Part shown: one piece after another, positions 8,065 through 37,805 of the stretch
Numbering within the stretch: position 1 is the first letter of the stretch
Layout of the letters: each line of letters opens with the position of its first letter
DNA from: Patescibacteria group bacterium
Lineage (GTDB): Bacteria; Patescibacteriota; Minisyncoccia; UBA6257
Assembly (NCBI GenBank): GCA_030917555.1
Contig: JAUPUN010000004.1
Span: 1 to 37,805 of the forward strand
Reading direction: 5' to 3'
DNA length: 37,805 nt
Notes under the pieces: generated by a model
Database searches by the model: none
What the model was told of the DNA's origin: nothing
What the model saw: the letters and a program-made list of their open reading frames with translations, nothing else
Made by a program: the position numbers and the translations under genes

Positions 8065-8082
8065 ACAATTATTAATAAAAAT

Positions 8083-8124
8083 ATCTAATATCTAATTTCT
8101 AATTTCTAATATCTAATATCTAAT
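8083..8124. repeat. Six tandem heptamers: ATCTAAT x2, TTCTAAT x2, ATCTAAT x2
   Basis: Read directly: atctaat atctaat ttctaat ttctaat atctaat atctaat. This is the complement of the ATTAGAN units at 8160-8229. Confidence 0.9.
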
Positions 8125-8254: not shown

Positions 8255-8959
8255 TCAATTTTGACTTTTGAATTTTGCCTTTTGACTTATCACGTGTTTA
8301 TCTCGCCATTCTTTAATTTTTTGATGATGACCAGATAAAAGTACTTTTGGTACCCGCCAGCTAATTTTTTTCTGGCGAGGATTGGGATAAAAAATTTCTG
8401 GCCTACTATATTGAGGATATTCTAGAGTACCTTGTTCCAAAGAGAAAGACTCTTCTTTTAAAGATTTTTCTTTTATTACGCCTGGGATTAAACGAGAAAT
8501 AGCATCTATTAAAACCATAGCTGGCAATTCACCGCCTGTCAAGACGTAATCACCAATAGAAATTTCTTCATCAGCCAGATATGTTTTTATTCGTTCATCA
8601 AACCCTTCATAATGAGGACAAATTAAAATTAGTTGTTCGTAATTTTTAAGACGTACTACGTCTTTCTGAGTTAATTTTTTACCTTTGACTGAAAAAAGAA
8701 TGACTCGTCTTTTTTTCAGACATGGTTCTTTCCGCAAAAGCTCTTTTACTGCCTTAAATACCGGTTCTATTAAAAAAATCATGCCCGCTCCACCTCCATA
8801 AGGTCTACCATCCACTGTTTCATGCCGATCAGTAGTCCATTTTCTTAAATTATGAATATTAATTTTAACTAATTTTTTAGCTTGAGCTCGTTTCAAAATG
8901 GAAGTTTGAAAATAGCTTTCAAACGCTTCTGGAAAAATTGTAATAATATCAAAACGCAT
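8255..8959 (-). CDS. trmD: tRNA (guanine37-N1)-methyltransferase
   Basis: 234 aa. MRFDIITIFPE start and the SAM-binding GDYVLTGGELPAMVLIDAISRLIPGV. Stop is TGA. The last ~11 codons are encoded by a heptamer tract at 8255-8289. Confidence 0.95.
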   Translation of the reverse strand: MRFDIITIFPEAFESYFQTSILKRAQAKKLVKINIHNLRKWTTDRHETVDGRPYGGGAGMIFLIEPVFKAVKELLRKEPCLKKRRVILFSVKGKKLTQKDVVRLKNYEQLILICPHYEGFDERIKTYLADEEISIGDYVLTGGELPAMVLIDAISRLIPGVIKEKSLKEESFSLEQGTLEYPQYSRPEIFYPNPRQKKISWRVPKVLLSGHHQKIKEWRDKHVISQKAKFKSQN

Positions 8960-12786: not shown

Positions 12787-12868
12787 TTCTAATTTCTAAT
12801 CCGCCAGCTGGCGGATTAGACATTGAGCATTTAGAAATTGATTAGAATAATTAGGTTAATTAGAATAA
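12787..12868. repeat. Second copy of the heptamer/inverted-repeat family, centred on a perfect 26-bp palindrome (12795-12820)
   Basis: ttctaat ttctaat, then ccgccagctggcgg, then attagac attgagc atttaga ... attaggttaattagaa. The palindrome tctaatccgccagctggcggattaga was read directly. Confidence 0.9.
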
Positions 12869-12885
12869 TTTTATTAAGTTTCTAT

Positions 12886-13116: not shown

Positions 13117-13201
13117 AACAAATAATTTTTATTTTAAATTTTTAATTTTTAAACAAAATATAATCTTTAGAAGAATAGCATAAAAAATTTCTAAAAACAA
13201 G

Positions 13202-16195: not shown

Positions 16196-16666
16196 ATGAC
16201 AAGCCGAAAAACAACTACTGATTTAATTCTTAATCGCAAAGCCAGATTCAACTATGAAATAAAAGAAACATGGGAAGCTGGTTTAGTTTTGAGTGGTGCC
16301 GAAGTAAAATCCGTTAGAGCTGGTAAAATAGATCTCTCTGGAGCCTATGTGGTCATTAAAAACCAAGAGGCTTTTTTGATTAACGCCTCAATTTCTCCTT
16401 ATCAACCGCAAAACCTTACTACTCATTACGACCCTTTAAGAAGTCGAAAACTATTGCTCAAAAAACGGGAAATTGCTTATTTATCTCAAAAATTAAAAGA
16501 AGGAGGTTTGACTTTAATCCCCTTAAAGGTATATAATAAAAATGGTTTACTGAAACTTGAAATTGGTTTAGCTAAACGACAAAAGAAATTTGATAAAAGA
16601 GAAGCTCTCAAAAAGAAAGAATCAAGACAAAAAATACAACGAGCTAAATTAGAGTTTAGAGTTTAG
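16196..16666 (+). CDS. smpB: SsrA-binding protein SmpB
   Basis: 156 aa. NRKARFNYEI, GAEVKS, and a basic C-terminal tail. Lies directly upstream of the tmRNA gene. Confidence 0.95.
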   Translation: MTSRKTTTDLILNRKARFNYEIKETWEAGLVLSGAEVKSVRAGKIDLSGAYVVIKNQEAFLINASISPYQPQNLTTHYDPLRSRKLLLKKREIAYLSQKLKEGGLTLIPLKVYNKNGLLKLEIGLAKRQKKFDKREALKKKESRQKIQRAKLEFRV

Positions 16667-16739
16667 GATTTAGAGTTTAGAGTTTAGGATTTAGAGTTTA
16701 GAGTTTAGAATTTAGAGTTTAGGATTTAGGATTTAATTA
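16649..16739. repeat. Twelve tandem heptamers (TTAGAGT/TTAGGAT/TTAGAAT), organised as a 21-bp super-unit, plus one degenerate unit
   Basis: Read directly. Units start at 16649 and continue every 7 nt to 16732. The smpB TAG stop (16664-16666) is inside unit 3, and the array ends 2 nt before the tmRNA 5' end. Confidence 0.95.
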
Positions 16740-16741
16740 AA

Positions 16742-17115
16742 GGGGATGCCTGGTTTCGATAAGAAGGAAATTGATAATACGCGAGCTGAGGAAGCTTCGT
16801 TAGCTCATTAAAATCGAAGCGGCAATTAAATGCCAATCGAATTCCAGCTTATGCTTATGCCTAAGAACGTAAGCTAAGCTTTGCTCCTCTCTAAAGGGGA
16901 ATTCCTCTAATTGGCGCCTGACCAATTAGCAGGAATTTAAATTTCAGGCTAGAGAGAAAATTAAGTTCTCCGCTTAATTTCTCTTGACCTTTTTCGGAGA
17001 GTTTTAAGAAAAGGTTTGTTCAGCCACCTCTCTTAAGACTAGCAAAGCTGAACTACGCTCGTAGCAGTATTATCAAGGAACTTCTTAGACGCGAGTCCAA
17101 CTCTCGCCATCTCCA
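16742..17115 (+). ncRNA. ssrA: tmRNA (SsrA), one-piece
   Basis: The 5' end ggggatg pairs with the 3' end catctcc, including a G3-U pair. The 3' end agacgcgagtccaactctcgccatctcca closely matches the E. coli tmRNA 3' end. The tag frame GCC AAT CGA ATT CCA GCT TAT GCT TAT GCC TAA (16832-16864) gives ANRIPAYAYA. The full CCA is not encoded. Confidence 0.9.
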
Positions 17116-17229
17116 CTCCTTTATCTTAGTTAGTATTGTGTTTTCTTTAATAAAATAAGTGCCTATCGCTTTGAAAAATATCTTAAAAGCGGTTCTGGAA
17201 GAGCTTTTATAAATAAACATCTTTCCTAA

Positions 17230-33853: not shown

Positions 33854-33888
33854 TATAAGTTGTAAGTTATAAGTTATGTGTTATAATG
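33854..33888. repeat. Five heptamers (TATAAGT TGTAAGT TATAAGT TATGTGT TATAATG) in the divergent tsaE/pilB spacer
   Basis: Read directly. The last two units form the extended -10 box. Confidence 0.8.
33879..33887 (+). promoter_or_regulatory. Extended -10 box TGTTATAAT for the PilB-like gene
   Basis: Exact TGnTATAAT match. It overlaps the first ATG of the track ORF (33886), so translation more likely begins at ATG 33892 or 33898. Confidence 0.4.
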
Positions 33889-36801
33889 AAGATGCTTATG
33901 GATGATCTAACTCAAAAAAGAGAGGAAAAAATCAAAAAGCTCTGGCAAGAATCTAAAGAAAGAATGGCTGAAGATTTAGCAGCTAAACATAATCTGCTTT
34001 ATGCTGATTTAAAAAAAATAAATATTTCTCCGAGCGCTTTGGAGATCTTACCAGAAGAAAAAGCTAAAGAAGCAAACGTAGTAGTCTTTGAAAAAATTGG
34101 TTCTAATCTCAAAATTGGCCTTACCAATCCTGAAAACCCTAAATCTCTCCGAGTAGTTGAAGAATTAAGAGCCCAGAATTATAAACCAGTAATTTATGTT
34201 ATTACTGAAGAAAGTTTAAATTGGGCCTGGACTTTTTATCGCTTCATTAAACCAAGACTTGAAAAAATTACTAATTCTTTGGATGTTTCTCAAACTAAAA
34301 CAGTTGAATTTTCTGCTTTAAACCAAGAATTATTAAATTATCCTGCTGAAGAAGTAACTACTTTAGTATCTCTTATCTTAAAATCAGCCATTAATATTGA
34401 CGCTTCTGATCTCCATTTGGAGCCACAAGACCAAGGGGCTTTAATTCGTTTTCGGGTTGATGGCGTTCTTTATGAAGTAGCTGAAATTGACACTAAAAAA
34501 TACCAAACAATTTCTTCCCGCTTAAAACTTATTTCTGGTTTAAAACTAAATATCACTAATAGCCCACAGAATGGTCGCTTTTCTATCAAAAATGAGGACA
34601 CTATTTTTGATGTTAGGGCTTCTAGTTTACCTAGTCCCAAAGGAGAATTTCTTGTCTTTCGACTTCTCAATCCCAAGCGCATGGCTTTTAGTTTAAGTGA
34701 CTTAGGTTTTAAAGACAGAGATTTGCAACTAATTAATAACACTCTTTCTAGTCCTAACGGCCTCATCTTAGTAACTGGGCCTACTGGTTCTGGTAAAACT
34801 ACTACTCTCTATGCCCTCTTAAAAGCTAAGGTTTCAGTAGGCATTAAAATCATCACTATTGAGGACCCAATTGAATATCGCTTGCCAGGCATTAATCAAA
34901 CCCAAGTTTCTAAAGATTACACCTTTGAAACAGGCTTAAAATCAATTTTACGGCAAGATCCAGATGTGATTATGATTGGTGAAATGCGAGACCCTAATAC
35001 TGTGAGTACTGCTTTGCAAGCCAGTCTCACTGGTCATTTAGTCTTCTCTACTTTGCACACTAACGAAGCCAGTGGTACCATTGATAGGCTTTTAGAACTA
35101 GGGGCAGACAGAAATATTTTGCCTAGCGCTTTAAGGCTCATTATTGCTCAACGTTTAGTCAGAAGACTCTGTCCTGATTGTAAAGAAGCTTACGAACCCT
35201 CACCAGAGCTTCAAGAAAAAATTCAAGAAGCATTTGCCATTCTTTCTCCCAAAAGCAAAGTAAAAATTCCTCAAACAATTCCTACTCTCTATCGAGCCAA
35301 AGGTTGCGAAAAATGCCATTTTCTGGGCTATCAATCACAAATCGGTCTTTTTGAAACTTTACCCATTACTCCCAGAATTACTAAAGAAATTTTAGCTCAA
35401 GCTAGTAATGACAACCTCAGAAAAACTGCCATCGATGAAGGAATGATTCCTTTATTTCATGACGGACTCTTAAAAGTGTTGGAGGGTATTACTTCCTTAG
35501 AAGAAGTTACTAGAGTAGCTGGAGATATCGAATATGTAGAAAAAAATTATCAGGAATTATTTTCTCAAACTCTTTTAAGAGGAATCAAACTTACTGCCGC
35601 AGATGAGAAGGAAATTGAAAAAATTTTAAAAACTAATCAAAACTGGTCAGAATATCTCAAAGATAAACCTACTTCCCAACAAATCGCCTATCTCATAGGC
35701 GGAGCTTTAAAAGCACGAGCTACTGATTTACATTTTGAACCAGAGGAAAATCAAATCAAAATCAGACAAAGAATTGATGGCGTCCTTTCAGAAATGGCAA
35801 GTTTTGATTTAGCTGAAGCGCCAAGGCTTCTTAATGAAATTAAAAATTTAAGTGGTTTGAACACTGAAGAGACACAAAAAATTCAAGAAGGAAGATTTCG
35901 AGTTAGTTTTCCTAACAGAAATTACGATATTAGGCTTTCCATTCTTCCGAGTGGCTATGGCGAAAGCGCAGCTTTAAGGCTTTTGGGTAATGAAACTCAA
36001 ATTTTAGATTTAGAAAATTTAGGCCTGTTACCTTCTAGTCAAGCTAAAATTGAAAAGCTTCTGCAAAATAAAATGGGCTTAATTTTAGTAACCGGACCAA
36101 CTTCTGCTGGTAAAACTACTACCCTTTTTGCTTTACTTAAGGAATTAAATCAGCCCGATGTCAAAATTATTACAGTAGAAGACCCAATTGAATATCGCTT
36201 GCCTGGCGTAAATCAAACCCAGATTAACGAAGAAAAAGGTTATACTTTTAGCAGCGCCATTAAAACTCTCTTGAGACAAAATCCTAATATCTTATTAATT
36301 GGAGAAATCAGAGATAAAGAAACAGCAAAAATAGTCTGGCAAGCCTCATTAACCGGACACTTAGTACTCTCTACTGTTCATGCTAATGATACTCAAGAAA
36401 TTATTCCTCGTCTTAAAAGTTTAGGCATTGAGCCTATTGATTTGATGAAAGCTTTGGAAGGGGTAATTAGCCAAAGATTAGTCAGAAAATTATGTCCTGC
36501 TTGTAAAATTGCAGCACCGGTTCCCCAAGAATACTCTTCTCTTTTTGAAAAAGCTCTTCAAAAATATCCGGAATACCAAAAACAATTCCAACCTCCTTAT
36601 CAAATGTTTCTGCCTCAAAAATGTGAACAGTGTAATTTTACTGGTTATCAAGGCCAAACTGGAATTTTTGAAATTGCTACTCAAAAAGAATTAGAAAACT
36701 TAAAGCAAATTTCTTATCCTACTTTATTAGATGATGCTTTAATTAAAGTTCTTTTAGGCGTCACTTCTTGGGAGGAAGTAAAAAGAGTTTTAGACGTTTA
36801 A
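33886..36801 (+). CDS. Tandem-fused double PilB/GspE-type (type II/IV secretion, type IV pilus assembly) ATPase
   Basis: 971 aa. Module 1 has an N-terminal GSPII_E_N-like domain, DLHLEP..RFRVDG, GPTGSGKTTT (aa 298), IITIEDPIEYRLPGINQTQV, DPDVIMIGEMRD, TGHLVFSTLHTN and CPDC...CEKC. Module 2 has DLHFEP..RQRIDG, GPTSAGKTTT (aa 737), IITVEDPIEYRLPGVNQTQI, NPNILLIGEIRD, TGHLVLSTVHAN and CPAC...CEQC. The true start may be 33892 or 33898. Confidence 0.88.
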   Translation: MKMLMDDLTQKREEKIKKLWQESKERMAEDLAAKHNLLYADLKKINISPSALEILPEEKAKEANVVVFEKIGSNLKIGLTNPENPKSLRVVEELRAQNYKPVIYVITEESLNWAWTFYRFIKPRLEKITNSLDVSQTKTVEFSALNQELLNYPAEEVTTLVSLILKSAINIDASDLHLEPQDQGALIRFRVDGVLYEVAEIDTKKYQTISSRLKLISGLKLNITNSPQNGRFSIKNEDTIFDVRASSLPSPKGEFLVFRLLNPKRMAFSLSDLGFKDRDLQLINNTLSSPNGLILVTGPTGSGKTTTLYALLKAKVSVGIKIITIEDPIEYRLPGINQTQVSKDYTFETGLKSILRQDPDVIMIGEMRDPNTVSTALQASLTGHLVFSTLHTNEASGTIDRLLELGADRNILPSALRLIIAQRLVRRLCPDCKEAYEPSPELQEKIQEAFAILSPKSKVKIPQTIPTLYRAKGCEKCHFLGYQSQIGLFETLPITPRITKEILAQASNDNLRKTAIDEGMIPLFHDGLLKVLEGITSLEEVTRVAGDIEYVEKNYQELFSQTLLRGIKLTAADEKEIEKILKTNQNWSEYLKDKPTSQQIAYLIGGALKARATDLHFEPEENQIKIRQRIDGVLSEMASFDLAEAPRLLNEIKNLSGLNTEETQKIQEGRFRVSFPNRNYDIRLSILPSGYGESAALRLLGNETQILDLENLGLLPSSQAKIEKLLQNKMGLILVTGPTSAGKTTTLFALLKELNQPDVKIITVEDPIEYRLPGVNQTQINEEKGYTFSSAIKTLLRQNPNILLIGEIRDKETAKIVWQASLTGHLVLSTVHANDTQEIIPRLKSLGIEPIDLMKALEGVISQRLVRKLCPACKIAAPVPQEYSSLFEKALQKYPEYQKQFQPPYQMFLPQKCEQCNFTGYQGQTGIFEIATQKELENLKQISYPTLLDDALIKVLLGVTSWEEVKRVLDV

Positions 36802-37080
36802 CAATCGCTCACCCCTTTCTCTTTCGCTCAAGCTATTTCGCCAAAGACAACAATCGTTCAGAGATATTTGCCTTTCGAAAACGTCCAAAATCCCCAGCGA
36901 TGATTTTGGACTCGCGCAAGCTCCTCGCTCCCCCTCACTTGGAAAGCACTGGGCTTCGCCCCTCATTAGAAACAGATCAATTTTATTGTTTTTTGGTAAT
37001 AGCCAATCTTTTTCAAGTGAGGGGCTTCGCCCTTAAAGATGAAATCTTGTGCTTTCCAAGTGAGGGGTGAGCGATTGTTA
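36799..37080. repeat. 282-bp G+C-rich nested inverted-repeat element (MITE-like or structured RNA) spanning the convergent spacer from stop codon to stop codon
   Basis: 17-bp perfect terminal inverted repeats: taacaatcgctcacccc (36799-36815) and ggggtgagcgattgtta (37064-37080). 19-bp inner inverted repeat: 36931-36949 with 37049-37067. Third pair: 36951-36965 with 37018-37032. 10-bp hairpin at 36883-36911. Confidence 0.6.
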
Positions 37081-37805
37081 TGTCGGTTCTTCAAAACTTA
37101 AATAATTTTTGGCTTTTTCTGGTTCTTGCATAATGGCTAAAGTCACCTGTTCTAAATGAATGCCGCGGGAACCTTTGACTAAAATTAAATCCCCTTCCCT
37201 AATAATTTCTTTAGCTTTTTTAGCAGCATCTTTACTGTTATTAAACCAATAAATATTTTCTTGTGAAAAACCTAATTTTAAACATTCCTCTAAAGTAATT
37301 TTCATTTGTTCGCCAACTAAAATTACAATCTCAGCTTGTTTAATAATTTGACTTGCTATTTGGCGGTGAGCCTCTTCGCTATATTGACCAAGCTCCCTCA
37401 TATCTCCTAAAACTAAAATTCTCCTTTTGACAGTATAAAGATTTTCCTTTCTTAAAGCGGTAGTTACTTCCTCAAAAATCCGTAAAGCCATTTTCAAGGC
37501 AGTAGGATTGGAATTATAGCTATCTTCCAAAATCCAGGTATTATTTTTACCCCTCAAAAAAGTGGTTCTCGCTTTTAAAATTTTGTATTCTTCTAAACTT
37601 TGAGCAATTTGAATCAAATTTAAACCCAAAGTTAAACCAACTGCTGTTCCAGCAGATAAAGCATAAGCTTGAGCTTCACCAAAAACTCCCTTAAATTTTA
37701 AGGGGACATAACTACCTTGATATTCTAAGCGAAAACTCATACCTGTTTCTCGTAAATCTTGAGAAACTACCAAAGAATAATCAGAAATTTTGACCTCAGC
37801 TTTCT
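37078..37805 (-). CDS. murF: UDP-N-acetylmuramoyl-tripeptide--D-alanyl-D-alanine ligase, C-terminal part. The gene continues past the right edge.
   Basis: Mur ligase central and C-terminal domains: LEDSYNSNPTALKMAL, LVLGDMRELG and LVKGSRGIHLE. The reading frame stays open upstream of the Met at 37773 as far as the window edge. Confidence 0.85.
   Translation of the reverse strand, partial: KAEVKISDYSLVVSQDLRETGMSFRLEYQGSYVPLKFKGVFGEAQAYALSAGTAVGLTLGLNLIQIAQSLEEYKILKARTTFLRGKNNTWILEDSYNSNPTALKMALRIFEEVTTALRKENLYTVKRRILVLGDMRELGQYSEEAHRQIASQIIKQAEIVILVGEQMKITLEECLKLGFSQENIYWFNNSKDAAKKAKEIIREGDLILVKGSRGIHLEQVTLAIMQEPEKAKNYLSFEEPT

Follow-up and report, generated by a model that had tools for sequence, protein, structure and literature searches.

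Contig JAUPUN010000004.1 of the Patescibacteria group assembly GCA_030917555.1, analysed over its whole length of 37,805 bp (hereafter the window), carries near one end two convergent genes separated by a palindromic spacer. On the plus strand, an open reading frame (ORF) for a PilB-like ATPase of the T2SSE family (33886-36801) ends in a TAA stop codon at 36799-36801. On the minus strand, a MurF-like ORF, whose product contains a Mur ligase C-terminal domain, ends in TAA at 37078-37080 (both products assigned by Pfam). An earlier, sequence-only reading had treated the 282 bp from stop to stop as a single element bounded by 17-bp inverted repeats and supplying both stop codons, and had proposed that it was a non-autonomous insertion resembling a miniature inverted-repeat transposable element (MITE), a structured RNA or a large bidirectional terminator or insulator. 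Our analysis points instead to a mosaic: the spacer is probably a patchwork of small selfish repeats, of kinds dispersed across the genomes of related Parcubacteria, with a core, here called E, that is linked to genes for GIY-YIG nucleases, and with a recombinant or chimeric junction.

The repeats listed in the earlier reading were all found in the sequence, with some details corrected. The outer inverted repeat is perfect, but it is 18 bp long rather than 17 (36799-36816 and 37063-37080, TAACAATCGCTCACCCCT), and of the four occurrences claimed for the octamer GTGAGGGG or its complement three are exact, the fourth (CCCCTCAT at 36959) having one mismatch. The perfect 19-bp inverted pair (36931-36949 and 37049-37067), the 10-bp hairpin (36883-36892 and 36902-36911) and the 11/12 direct copy of the terminal repeat (AACAATCGTTCA at 36849-36860) are present as described; both convergent stop codons are the outermost triplets of the outer repeat, and the spacer is richer in G+C than its surroundings (45%, compared with 34% for the window). 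The outer 17-mer occurs twice in the window, where 0.07 copies are expected, and none of 100 shuffles reached two. When folded, the spacer is far more stable than shuffled sequence (z = -9.3 on the plus strand and -11.0 on the minus strand). This structure resides wholly within 36931-37067, which gives a DNA hairpin of -41.4 kcal/mol (z = -10.3), and the left 132 nt of the spacer are nearly unstructured (fold z = -1.8 and +0.3). For comparison, related contigs and loci totalling about 0.7 Mb, designated by L-numbers, were fetched, mainly with the E1 19-mer. The spacer resolves into the parts below, followed by one further site in the window.

36799-36811, plus strand: left copy of the gene-end word TAACAATCGCTCA, with the TAA of the PilB-like gene first; together with 36812-36816 it forms the left outer arm.
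36812-36848, plus strand: module D (CCCCTTTCTCTTTCGCTCAAGCTATTTCGCCAAAGAC), a dispersed repeat with little structure (fold z = +0.3).
36849-36860, plus strand: AACAATCGTTCA, the 11/12 copy of the gene-end word, in the place taken by the TCGCTC duplication in B/C-type elements.
36861-36930, plus strand: lone left arm (GAGATATTTGCCTTTCGAAAACGTCC...CTCCTCGCTC) of a MITE-like element of type B, including the 10-bp hairpin (36883-36911).
36931-37067, strand not assigned: E1, here the long form of 137 nt; it belongs to the CCCCTCACTTG...CAAGTGAGGGG family and has perfect 19-bp arms.
36959-37024, strand not assigned: E2, 66 nt, nested in E1, with its left terminus decayed to CCCCTCATTAG and a CTTCG duplication.
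36973-36997, strand not assigned: switch-point interval, to the left of which the sequence matches the pilB-side contigs L021 and L023 and to the right of which it is identical to the murF-side contig L116.
37068-37080, minus strand: right copy of the gene-end word TAACAATCGCTCA, carrying the TAA of the MurF-like gene; the terminal GGGG(A) of E1 completes it to give the right outer arm.
16742-16749, plus strand: empty target site of E at the 5' end of the transfer-messenger RNA (tmRNA) gene, where GGGGATGC occurs once in the window; the site is filled in syntenic relatives.

The core is built from two related palindromes. In its short form E1 is 66 nt long and consists of one arm, TGGGCTTCGCCC, (A/T)4AGATGAAATCTT and the second arm. 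The long form of E (137-138 nt) is E1 with a second palindrome of 66-67 nt, E2 (CCCCTCACTTGAAA...TTTCAAGTGAGGGG), inside the mini-hairpin GGGCTTCGCCC and with CTTCG duplicated; both E1 and E2 bear the termini CCCCTCACTTG...CAAGTGAGGGG. In the window the CTTCG copies that flank E2 lie at 36954-36958 and 37025-37029, a 5-bp duplication. Because the nested insertion of E2 split the mini-hairpin and duplicated 5 bp, the two copies of GGGCTTCGCCC are the halves of one original. What had been described as a third inverted pair, complementary except for a central ttc, is thus a direct repeat of a self-complementary mini-hairpin. The loop kept in the same orientation, previously taken as a hint of selection at the RNA level, is likewise explained by the nested E2, and the whole loop is found in both orientations at the same site across loci. 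Short and long forms of E differ by exactly the E2 insert at five orthologous sites (for the murF site, compare L115 with L116), and elsewhere the same 11-14-nt termini enclose other sequences, 60-148 nt long. The units of 66 and 137 nt, with their perfect 19-bp arms, are small, non-coding and bounded by terminal inverted repeats, as MITEs are. E1 in the window is flanked by CTCGCTC and TGAGCG.

E is dispersed and appears to be mobile. A scan of JGI metagenomes found the 19-nt arm in 75 Parcubacteria-type contigs, many of them orthologous, mostly as plus/minus pairs spaced by 66 or 137-138 nt. Both flanks are present for 67 copies, which represent 25 contexts, and in 16 of these 25 the junction shows a direct repeat of 4 nt or more; the expected number is 1.07, and the maximum in 2000 shuffles of the flank pairing was six. 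The target duplications of the family are short and variable (4-7 bp), and the CTTCG around E2 in the window is one of them. As in MITE families, copies are numerous and dispersed, with empty as well as filled sites, and up to three copies lie within 3-4 kb in L039 and L069. The tmRNA 5' end offers the best evidence of mobility. The tmRNA gene of the window (identified by Rfam) starts ...AAAGGGGATGCCTGG with no E insertion, and syntenic contigs of 70-77% identity read ...GGGGATGC, then a 137-138-nt E, then GATGCTCGG, with the duplication GATGC. This site and four others hold the short or the long form depending on the contig. The E1 19-mer had zero matches in IMG/VR, hence no sign of a phage origin.

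The copies also favour a particular kind of target. Of 94 top-level E copies, 26 have an edge no more than 3 nt from one or the other end of a transfer RNA (tRNA) or tmRNA gene, at about a dozen distinct sites, where a rough estimate puts the chance expectation below one (77 such genes in 0.70 Mb). Insertions are usually just 3' of a run of G, and after insertion at a 5' border the element's own terminal GGGG restores the first bases of the RNA gene.

Three further observations concern insertion sites of E. The asymmetric E1 loop occurs in both orientations at the same site and with the same duplication in three pairs of loci (L031 and L070, L030 and L039, L041 and L067), which suggests that the loop inverts in place between the 19-bp arms, that gene conversion occurs or that the site has been entered more than once. 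L074 (262-484) shows a partial tandem duplication at the tmRNA site that takes in an E element and the adjoining 20 nt on its left. The tmRNA gene of the window (16742-17118) is preceded at 16649-16735 by a tandem array of about 12 copies of the 7-nt unit TTAGAGT/TTAGGAT.

The distribution of E bears on the idea that the hairpin is kept as a bidirectional terminator, an insulator or a structured RNA serving convergent genes. The hairpin is extremely stable on both strands, it lies between convergent genes, and other copies directly follow the 3' ends of tRNA genes. We nevertheless consider such a role improbable. The stem is followed by TGAGCGATTG, which lacks the T-run of an intrinsic terminator, and a terminator and promoter scan of 36400-37500 returned nothing within the spacer (36799-37080). 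No Rfam family matched at its gathering score; only microRNA-precursor models gave matches, all far under their thresholds, the best, also at E <= 10, being a plant model with 27.5 bits against a threshold of 135, so that there is no credible Rfam match. The same element is also found at the 5' ends of tRNA and tmRNA genes, in either orientation, and relatives manage without it at the same gene ends. Since E borders RNA genes on the 5' as well as the 3' side and in either orientation, and since orthologous sites in relatives lack it, we read it as selfish DNA; a block to transcription or replication by the hairpin is possible as an incidental by-product.

The left part of the spacer consists of modules that recur elsewhere. 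Positions 36805-36930 share about 88% identity with sequence that follows an mreB-like gene in L075/L036, 36805-36850 also match L063, and related copies of module D are found in L051, L050, L067 and L046. Positions 36861-36930 are 82-92% identical to sequences in L050, L042 and L045. In L042 and L050 the B element is complete, having two arms and a 6-bp TCGCTC duplication; the right arm of B is missing from the window. B elements and the related C elements, a second MITE-like family, have the ends GGARATATAT...ATATATYTCC, the TCGCTC duplication and a central slot that holds either an E copy or a small, unrelated G+C-rich hairpin. Copies of this B/C type were noted in L042 (minus strand, after a 464-codon ORF), L046 (5084-5290), L050, L059 and L067 (54-330), and a gene end that has B in L050 has C in L059.

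These separate occurrences also bear on how the spacer as a whole is to be viewed. Its 282 bp could be taken for one MITE with terminal repeats of 17/18 bp, inserted at TA/TAA and later modified by internal insertions: the 18-bp outer inverted repeat is perfect, the TA on each side might be a duplication of the Tc1/IS630 type, and 114 nt (36817-36930) lie between CCCCT direct repeats, as though inserted into a once-perfect 32-bp palindrome. This is, in our view, very improbable. The parts occur separately, and the two ends lie at different loci in relatives: the left end is present without the right end in L021 to L023, the right end sits at the murF locus in relatives with no pilB nearby, and the left composite of D, B and E recurs downstream of the mreB-like gene. 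In 596 Gb of reference genomes the 17-mer gave only lone matches, 19 in GTDB representatives and one in IMG/VR, all of 17-20 nt, none extending past 20 nt, in unrelated phyla and at chance level; the full 282-bp unit with both ends was not found at other loci in these 17-mer scans of GTDB and IMG/VR. TA, TAA and TTAA, considered as target duplications either for the spacer in full or for modules D and C, showed no consistent pattern. A MITE-like insertion describes the structured core, which is a non-autonomous MITE-like palindromic repeat, and does not describe the 282 bp as one element.

The coincidence of the stop codons with the outer repeat has a different source. The 12-mer TAACAATCGCTC, at 36799-36810 and 37069-37080 in the window, carries the in-frame TAA of long ORFs in L042, L050/L059, L054 and L115/L116; across contigs it starts at the TAA stop of at least five unrelated genes and is followed by D, B, C or E modules. 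It was also noted in L067. The overlap is not due to chance, because the same 12-mer begins at the stop of several unrelated genes. In relatives, the two proteins end at the same residue. The last residues are ..FEEPT or ..FSCPT in MurF relatives (60-71% identity) and ..RVLGV, ..RVLGI or ..RVLDI in those of PilB (about 75% identity), and both native C-termini are unaltered. The sequence-only reading had named, as an observation that would make the coincidence trivial, the same stops in relatives without the element. This is partly what was found: the end residue is the same, and a 74%-identical pilB orthologue in L051 stops at TGA without the element, a related module lying 170 nt further on. 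The outer 18-bp inverted repeat is not a transposon end. It exists because one word, TAACAATCGCTCA, closes each of the two convergent genes, its TAA falling on the native stop codon, and this 13-nt word becomes an 18-bp repeat because the terminal CCCC(T) of E extends it. The empty-state pad approximates to TAACAATCGCTC(GCTC)TTAAGGTTTTAAAA, and TAACAATCGCTC may represent either a landing pad or the lone terminus of some other element.

How the two gene ends came to face each other was approached through relatives reached via the 90% cluster of the PilB-like protein, the exact window protein being on no record. By this protein the contig belongs to the Parcubacteria/Minisyncoccia. Members of the cluster are five contigs from other samples; all five contain the left part of the spacer at 97-98% identity, and four of the five end inside the spacer element. 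In L021, pilB is followed by D, B and E (left half plus insert), an A+T-rich stretch, tRNA-Ser, a hairpin with the same termini and a ComF-like gene, and neither murF nor the right copy of the outer repeat is present. The closest murF relatives, L115 and L116, one of which is from the same sample as L021, read murF-TAA-CAATCGCTCA-E (short or long)-CTCGCTCTTAAGG-tRNA...ribosomal protein L21, and pilB is absent there. In the alignment, the window follows the pilB-side copies up to ...CATTAGAAAC (about 36972) and is identical to the murF-side L116 from about 36979 to beyond the murF stop. In the closest relatives pilB and murF are thus separate loci, each with its own word and E copy, and the window joins them via one hybrid E. 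The lack of a target duplication at E1 and of a right arm at B fit a hybrid. Recombination between two inverted E copies, that is an inversion, may have produced the junction.

A serious competitor, to which we give somewhat less than an even chance, is an assembly chimera: the assembler would have crossed between loci via the shared E, and the pilB-murF junction, the 18-bp outer repeat and the "single element" would exist in no cell. The element lies 725 nt from the end of the 37,805-bp contig, the contigs of four close relatives all break inside it, and sample ERZ28615675 has pilB and murF on different contigs with other neighbours. The pilB-side type on the left, giving way to 100% identity with L116 from about 36979, the missing E1 duplication and the missing right arm of B all suit a chimera too. 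However, genuine recombination of two inverted E copies yields exactly the same sequence, as an assembler jump through the repeat and a real exchange predict identical products, and the pilB-side copy has been rearranged in nature as well (in L021 the right arm is lost and tRNA-Ser is next). Among the JGI contigs, L022, L024 and L025 have pilB and polA orthologues that frameshifts break into several ORFs, yet are 95-99% identical to the window; these are more likely sequencing errors than pseudogenes.

The termini of E also enclose a gene. In L069, positions 1169-1455 form a 287-nt unit that reads CCCCTCACTTGGAAAGAAT-ATG...87 codons...TTCCAAG-TGA-GGGG, the final codons and the stop codon lying inside the other terminus. 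All 14 further copies fetched are exactly 287 nt long and have the same termini, and in every copy the start codon is 19 nt from one end and the stop codon within the other. The units are flanked by duplications (CCCG, CACC, CTCCG, CCGGTAG or CCCGTAG), and an identical 87-aa protein was seen in three or more separate contexts. It consists of a GIY-YIG domain (Pfam PF01541, E = 1.2e-15) whose best match in the PDB is the UPF0213 protein 1zg2 (4e-9), followed by SLX1, and it belongs to the minimal stand-alone class of UPF0213/Slx1-like proteins. Among the catalytic columns, Y3, Y5, Y16, G18, R26, H30 and E62 are invariant and E50 nearly so, as befits a member of the GIY-YIG superfamily. A database search returned 946 homologues at E <= 1e-10, of which the best 120 come mostly from contigs of 0.5-2 kb. 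The closest homologues fetched mostly end in NSLILSK, and in three further clusters upstream-extended gene calls begin with SPSLGKNM, which is the translated terminus. A 48%-identical homologue (L090, 1037-1336) lies within an inverted repeat of its own, 16-20 nt long (CCCRGTAATTCAACTTTGAA), with its stop codon in the right copy. Another, 40% identical and beside a tmRNA 3' end (L095, 565-873, and orthologues), has no such inverted repeat. Derivation of the E1 interior from the 3' end of the GIY-YIG gene was tested, and the local alignment scored 45, hardly more than the 38 that the shared arm gives by itself, which is too little for a claim.

The 287-bp units share the termini of E and are in this respect candidates for its autonomous partner, with a putative mobilising role for the protein. 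The mechanism that we infer as part of the mosaic reading is that the nuclease cuts hairpin or cruciform ends and structured targets, and that it thereby mobilises in trans both the 287-bp units and their hairpin derivatives. A stronger proposal, made tentatively and with confidence clearly below even, would place the E family in a class of its own among the mobile elements of prokaryotes, a new one. The autonomous 287-bp member, with two terminal inverted repeats of roughly 19 bp, would encode an 87-aa Slx1-like GIY-YIG nuclease that itself carries out structure-directed insertion at the feet of hairpins, including tRNA and tmRNA borders and other copies, and that would also drive a swarm of hairpins that reshuffles Parcubacteria genomes.

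A different division of labour is possible, although we judge it less likely than not: E would be mobile, the GIY-YIG gene would merely travel with it as a passenger or would be a homing gene directed at the hairpin loop, and movement would be due to another transposase or to host recombination. A GIY-YIG transposase is described nowhere in the literature found, the protein is a bare catalytic domain, and many different sequences lie between the same termini; these points favour a passenger. A passenger is harder to reconcile with the fixed placement of start and stop codons in units that are all exactly 287 nt long, or with the retention of the same design of ORF plus repeat in the 48%-identical homologue, where the repeat sequence is different. 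Larger elements (>400 nt) bounded by E termini were absent from the 0.7 Mb of fetched DNA, in which only solo, decayed termini were seen. Searches of the literature on MITEs in the candidate phyla radiation (CPR), on GIY-YIG proteins with inverted repeats, on UPF0213 and on YhbQ found no such elements described, with incomplete coverage that is not proof of novelty; the E repeat family, widespread in Parcubacteria, is apparently undescribed.

Several points weigh against reading the spacer as a mosaic with a mobile, nuclease-linked core. We know of no GIY-YIG nuclease that acts as a transposase, and the 87-aa protein has no separate DNA-binding domain. The 37.8-kb window contains no GIY-YIG unit, so that a partner acting in trans in this genome is putative. 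The E1 copy in the window has no target duplication, and a duplication length that varies from 4 to 7 bp is unlike classical transposition. The counts given for E are of contigs, many of them orthologous, in a sample fetched with the E1 19-mer and hence biased towards E1. The mosaic does not account for the gene-end word, and a real pilB-murF junction and a chimeric one would have the same sequence.

Comparison with known systems places E close to several of them. Bacterial MITEs (Correia/NEMIS in Neisseria, RUP in Streptococcus pneumoniae, ERIC/IRU and the cyanobacterial Nezha) are, like E, short non-coding units (66-150 nt) with inverted repeats, short duplications, hairpins, dispersal, nesting and presence/absence polymorphism. 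Their partners encode a DDE transposase, whereas the 287-bp unit of E encodes a GIY-YIG protein, and E further differs in the variable length of its duplications (4-7 bp) and in its strong preference for exact tRNA and tmRNA borders. Repetitive extragenic palindromes (REP) and the bacterial interspersed mosaic elements (BIME) that they form, together with the REP-associated tyrosine transposases (RAYT), also give extragenic palindrome mosaics and a small nuclease gene within inverted copies of a dispersed repeat. RAYT, however, is an HUH/Y1 enzyme of about 150 aa, and REP sequences have a GTAG motif and leave no target duplication; the gene flanked by E termini encodes a GIY-YIG protein, duplications are present, and the coding unit itself is found at several sites. 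Terminal inverted repeats and duplications likewise separate E from IS200/IS605 elements and their palindrome-associated derivatives, which have sub-terminal hairpins and an HUH TnpA, and TnpA was not seen beside any copy.

GIY-YIG homing endonucleases, free-standing or intron-borne, such as I-TevI and the Seg proteins resemble the E unit in being GIY-YIG domains encoded by selfish mobile genes. They are proteins of about 200-260 aa with a C-terminal DNA-binding domain, act at one cognate site, spread by homologous repair and lack inverted repeats and duplications; the E unit, in contrast, encodes a catalytic domain only, of 87 aa, and is found in several unrelated insertion contexts. Palindromic selfish repeats in a reduced-genome bacterium are also known as Rickettsia palindromic elements, which, like E, lie beside or in genes, including RNA genes, without destroying them. 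Unlike E, these insert in frame inside coding sequences and have no nuclease gene, and they share no sequence similarity with it. To our knowledge, stand-alone proteins of the UPF0213/Slx1-like type are ordinary single-copy host genes that are not bracketed by inverted repeats. They are of the same size class as the 87-aa protein and give its best sequence matches. Dunin-Horkawicz et al. (2006, PMC1564403) describe such proteins, exemplified by BH0048 (1zg2) and EF2693 (1ywl), as the domain in its minimal form.

Some features of the window lie outside this argument. The PilB-like ATPase (33886-36801; 971 aa) consists of two complete T2SSE ATPase units fused, a double form kept at about 965-1020 aa across many Parcubacteria/Patescibacteria proteins. 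A 100-aa ORF (36768-37070) spans the palindrome; it has no Pfam match and was treated as spurious. Spacers at 8080-8124, 8259-8288, 12841-12870 and 13123-13152 contain short A+T-rich word arrays (AATATCT, TTTTGAC, ATTAGAATA and TAATTTT), which have matches, too, in spacers of Parcubacteria contigs that are otherwise unrelated.

Classical mobile elements are considered scarce in CPR bacteria. What had looked like a single element supplying two stop codons is an accident of a pile-up of repeats and a recombinant or chimeric junction, and it carries a caution for CPR annotation and binning, since assemblies of five related populations break at the E repeat. E itself is a dispersed, nested repeat system that seeks tRNA borders and is tied to a minimal GIY-YIG nuclease. 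If that nuclease does move the repeats, the unit would be the smallest self-contained DNA transposon known, at less than 300 bp, and the first GIY-YIG transposon with inverted repeats and duplications; the chemistries of transposition would gain a nuclease family, and the widespread UPF0213/Slx1-like stand-alone proteins a testable function. The E repeats also mark breakpoints in gene order between very close relatives.

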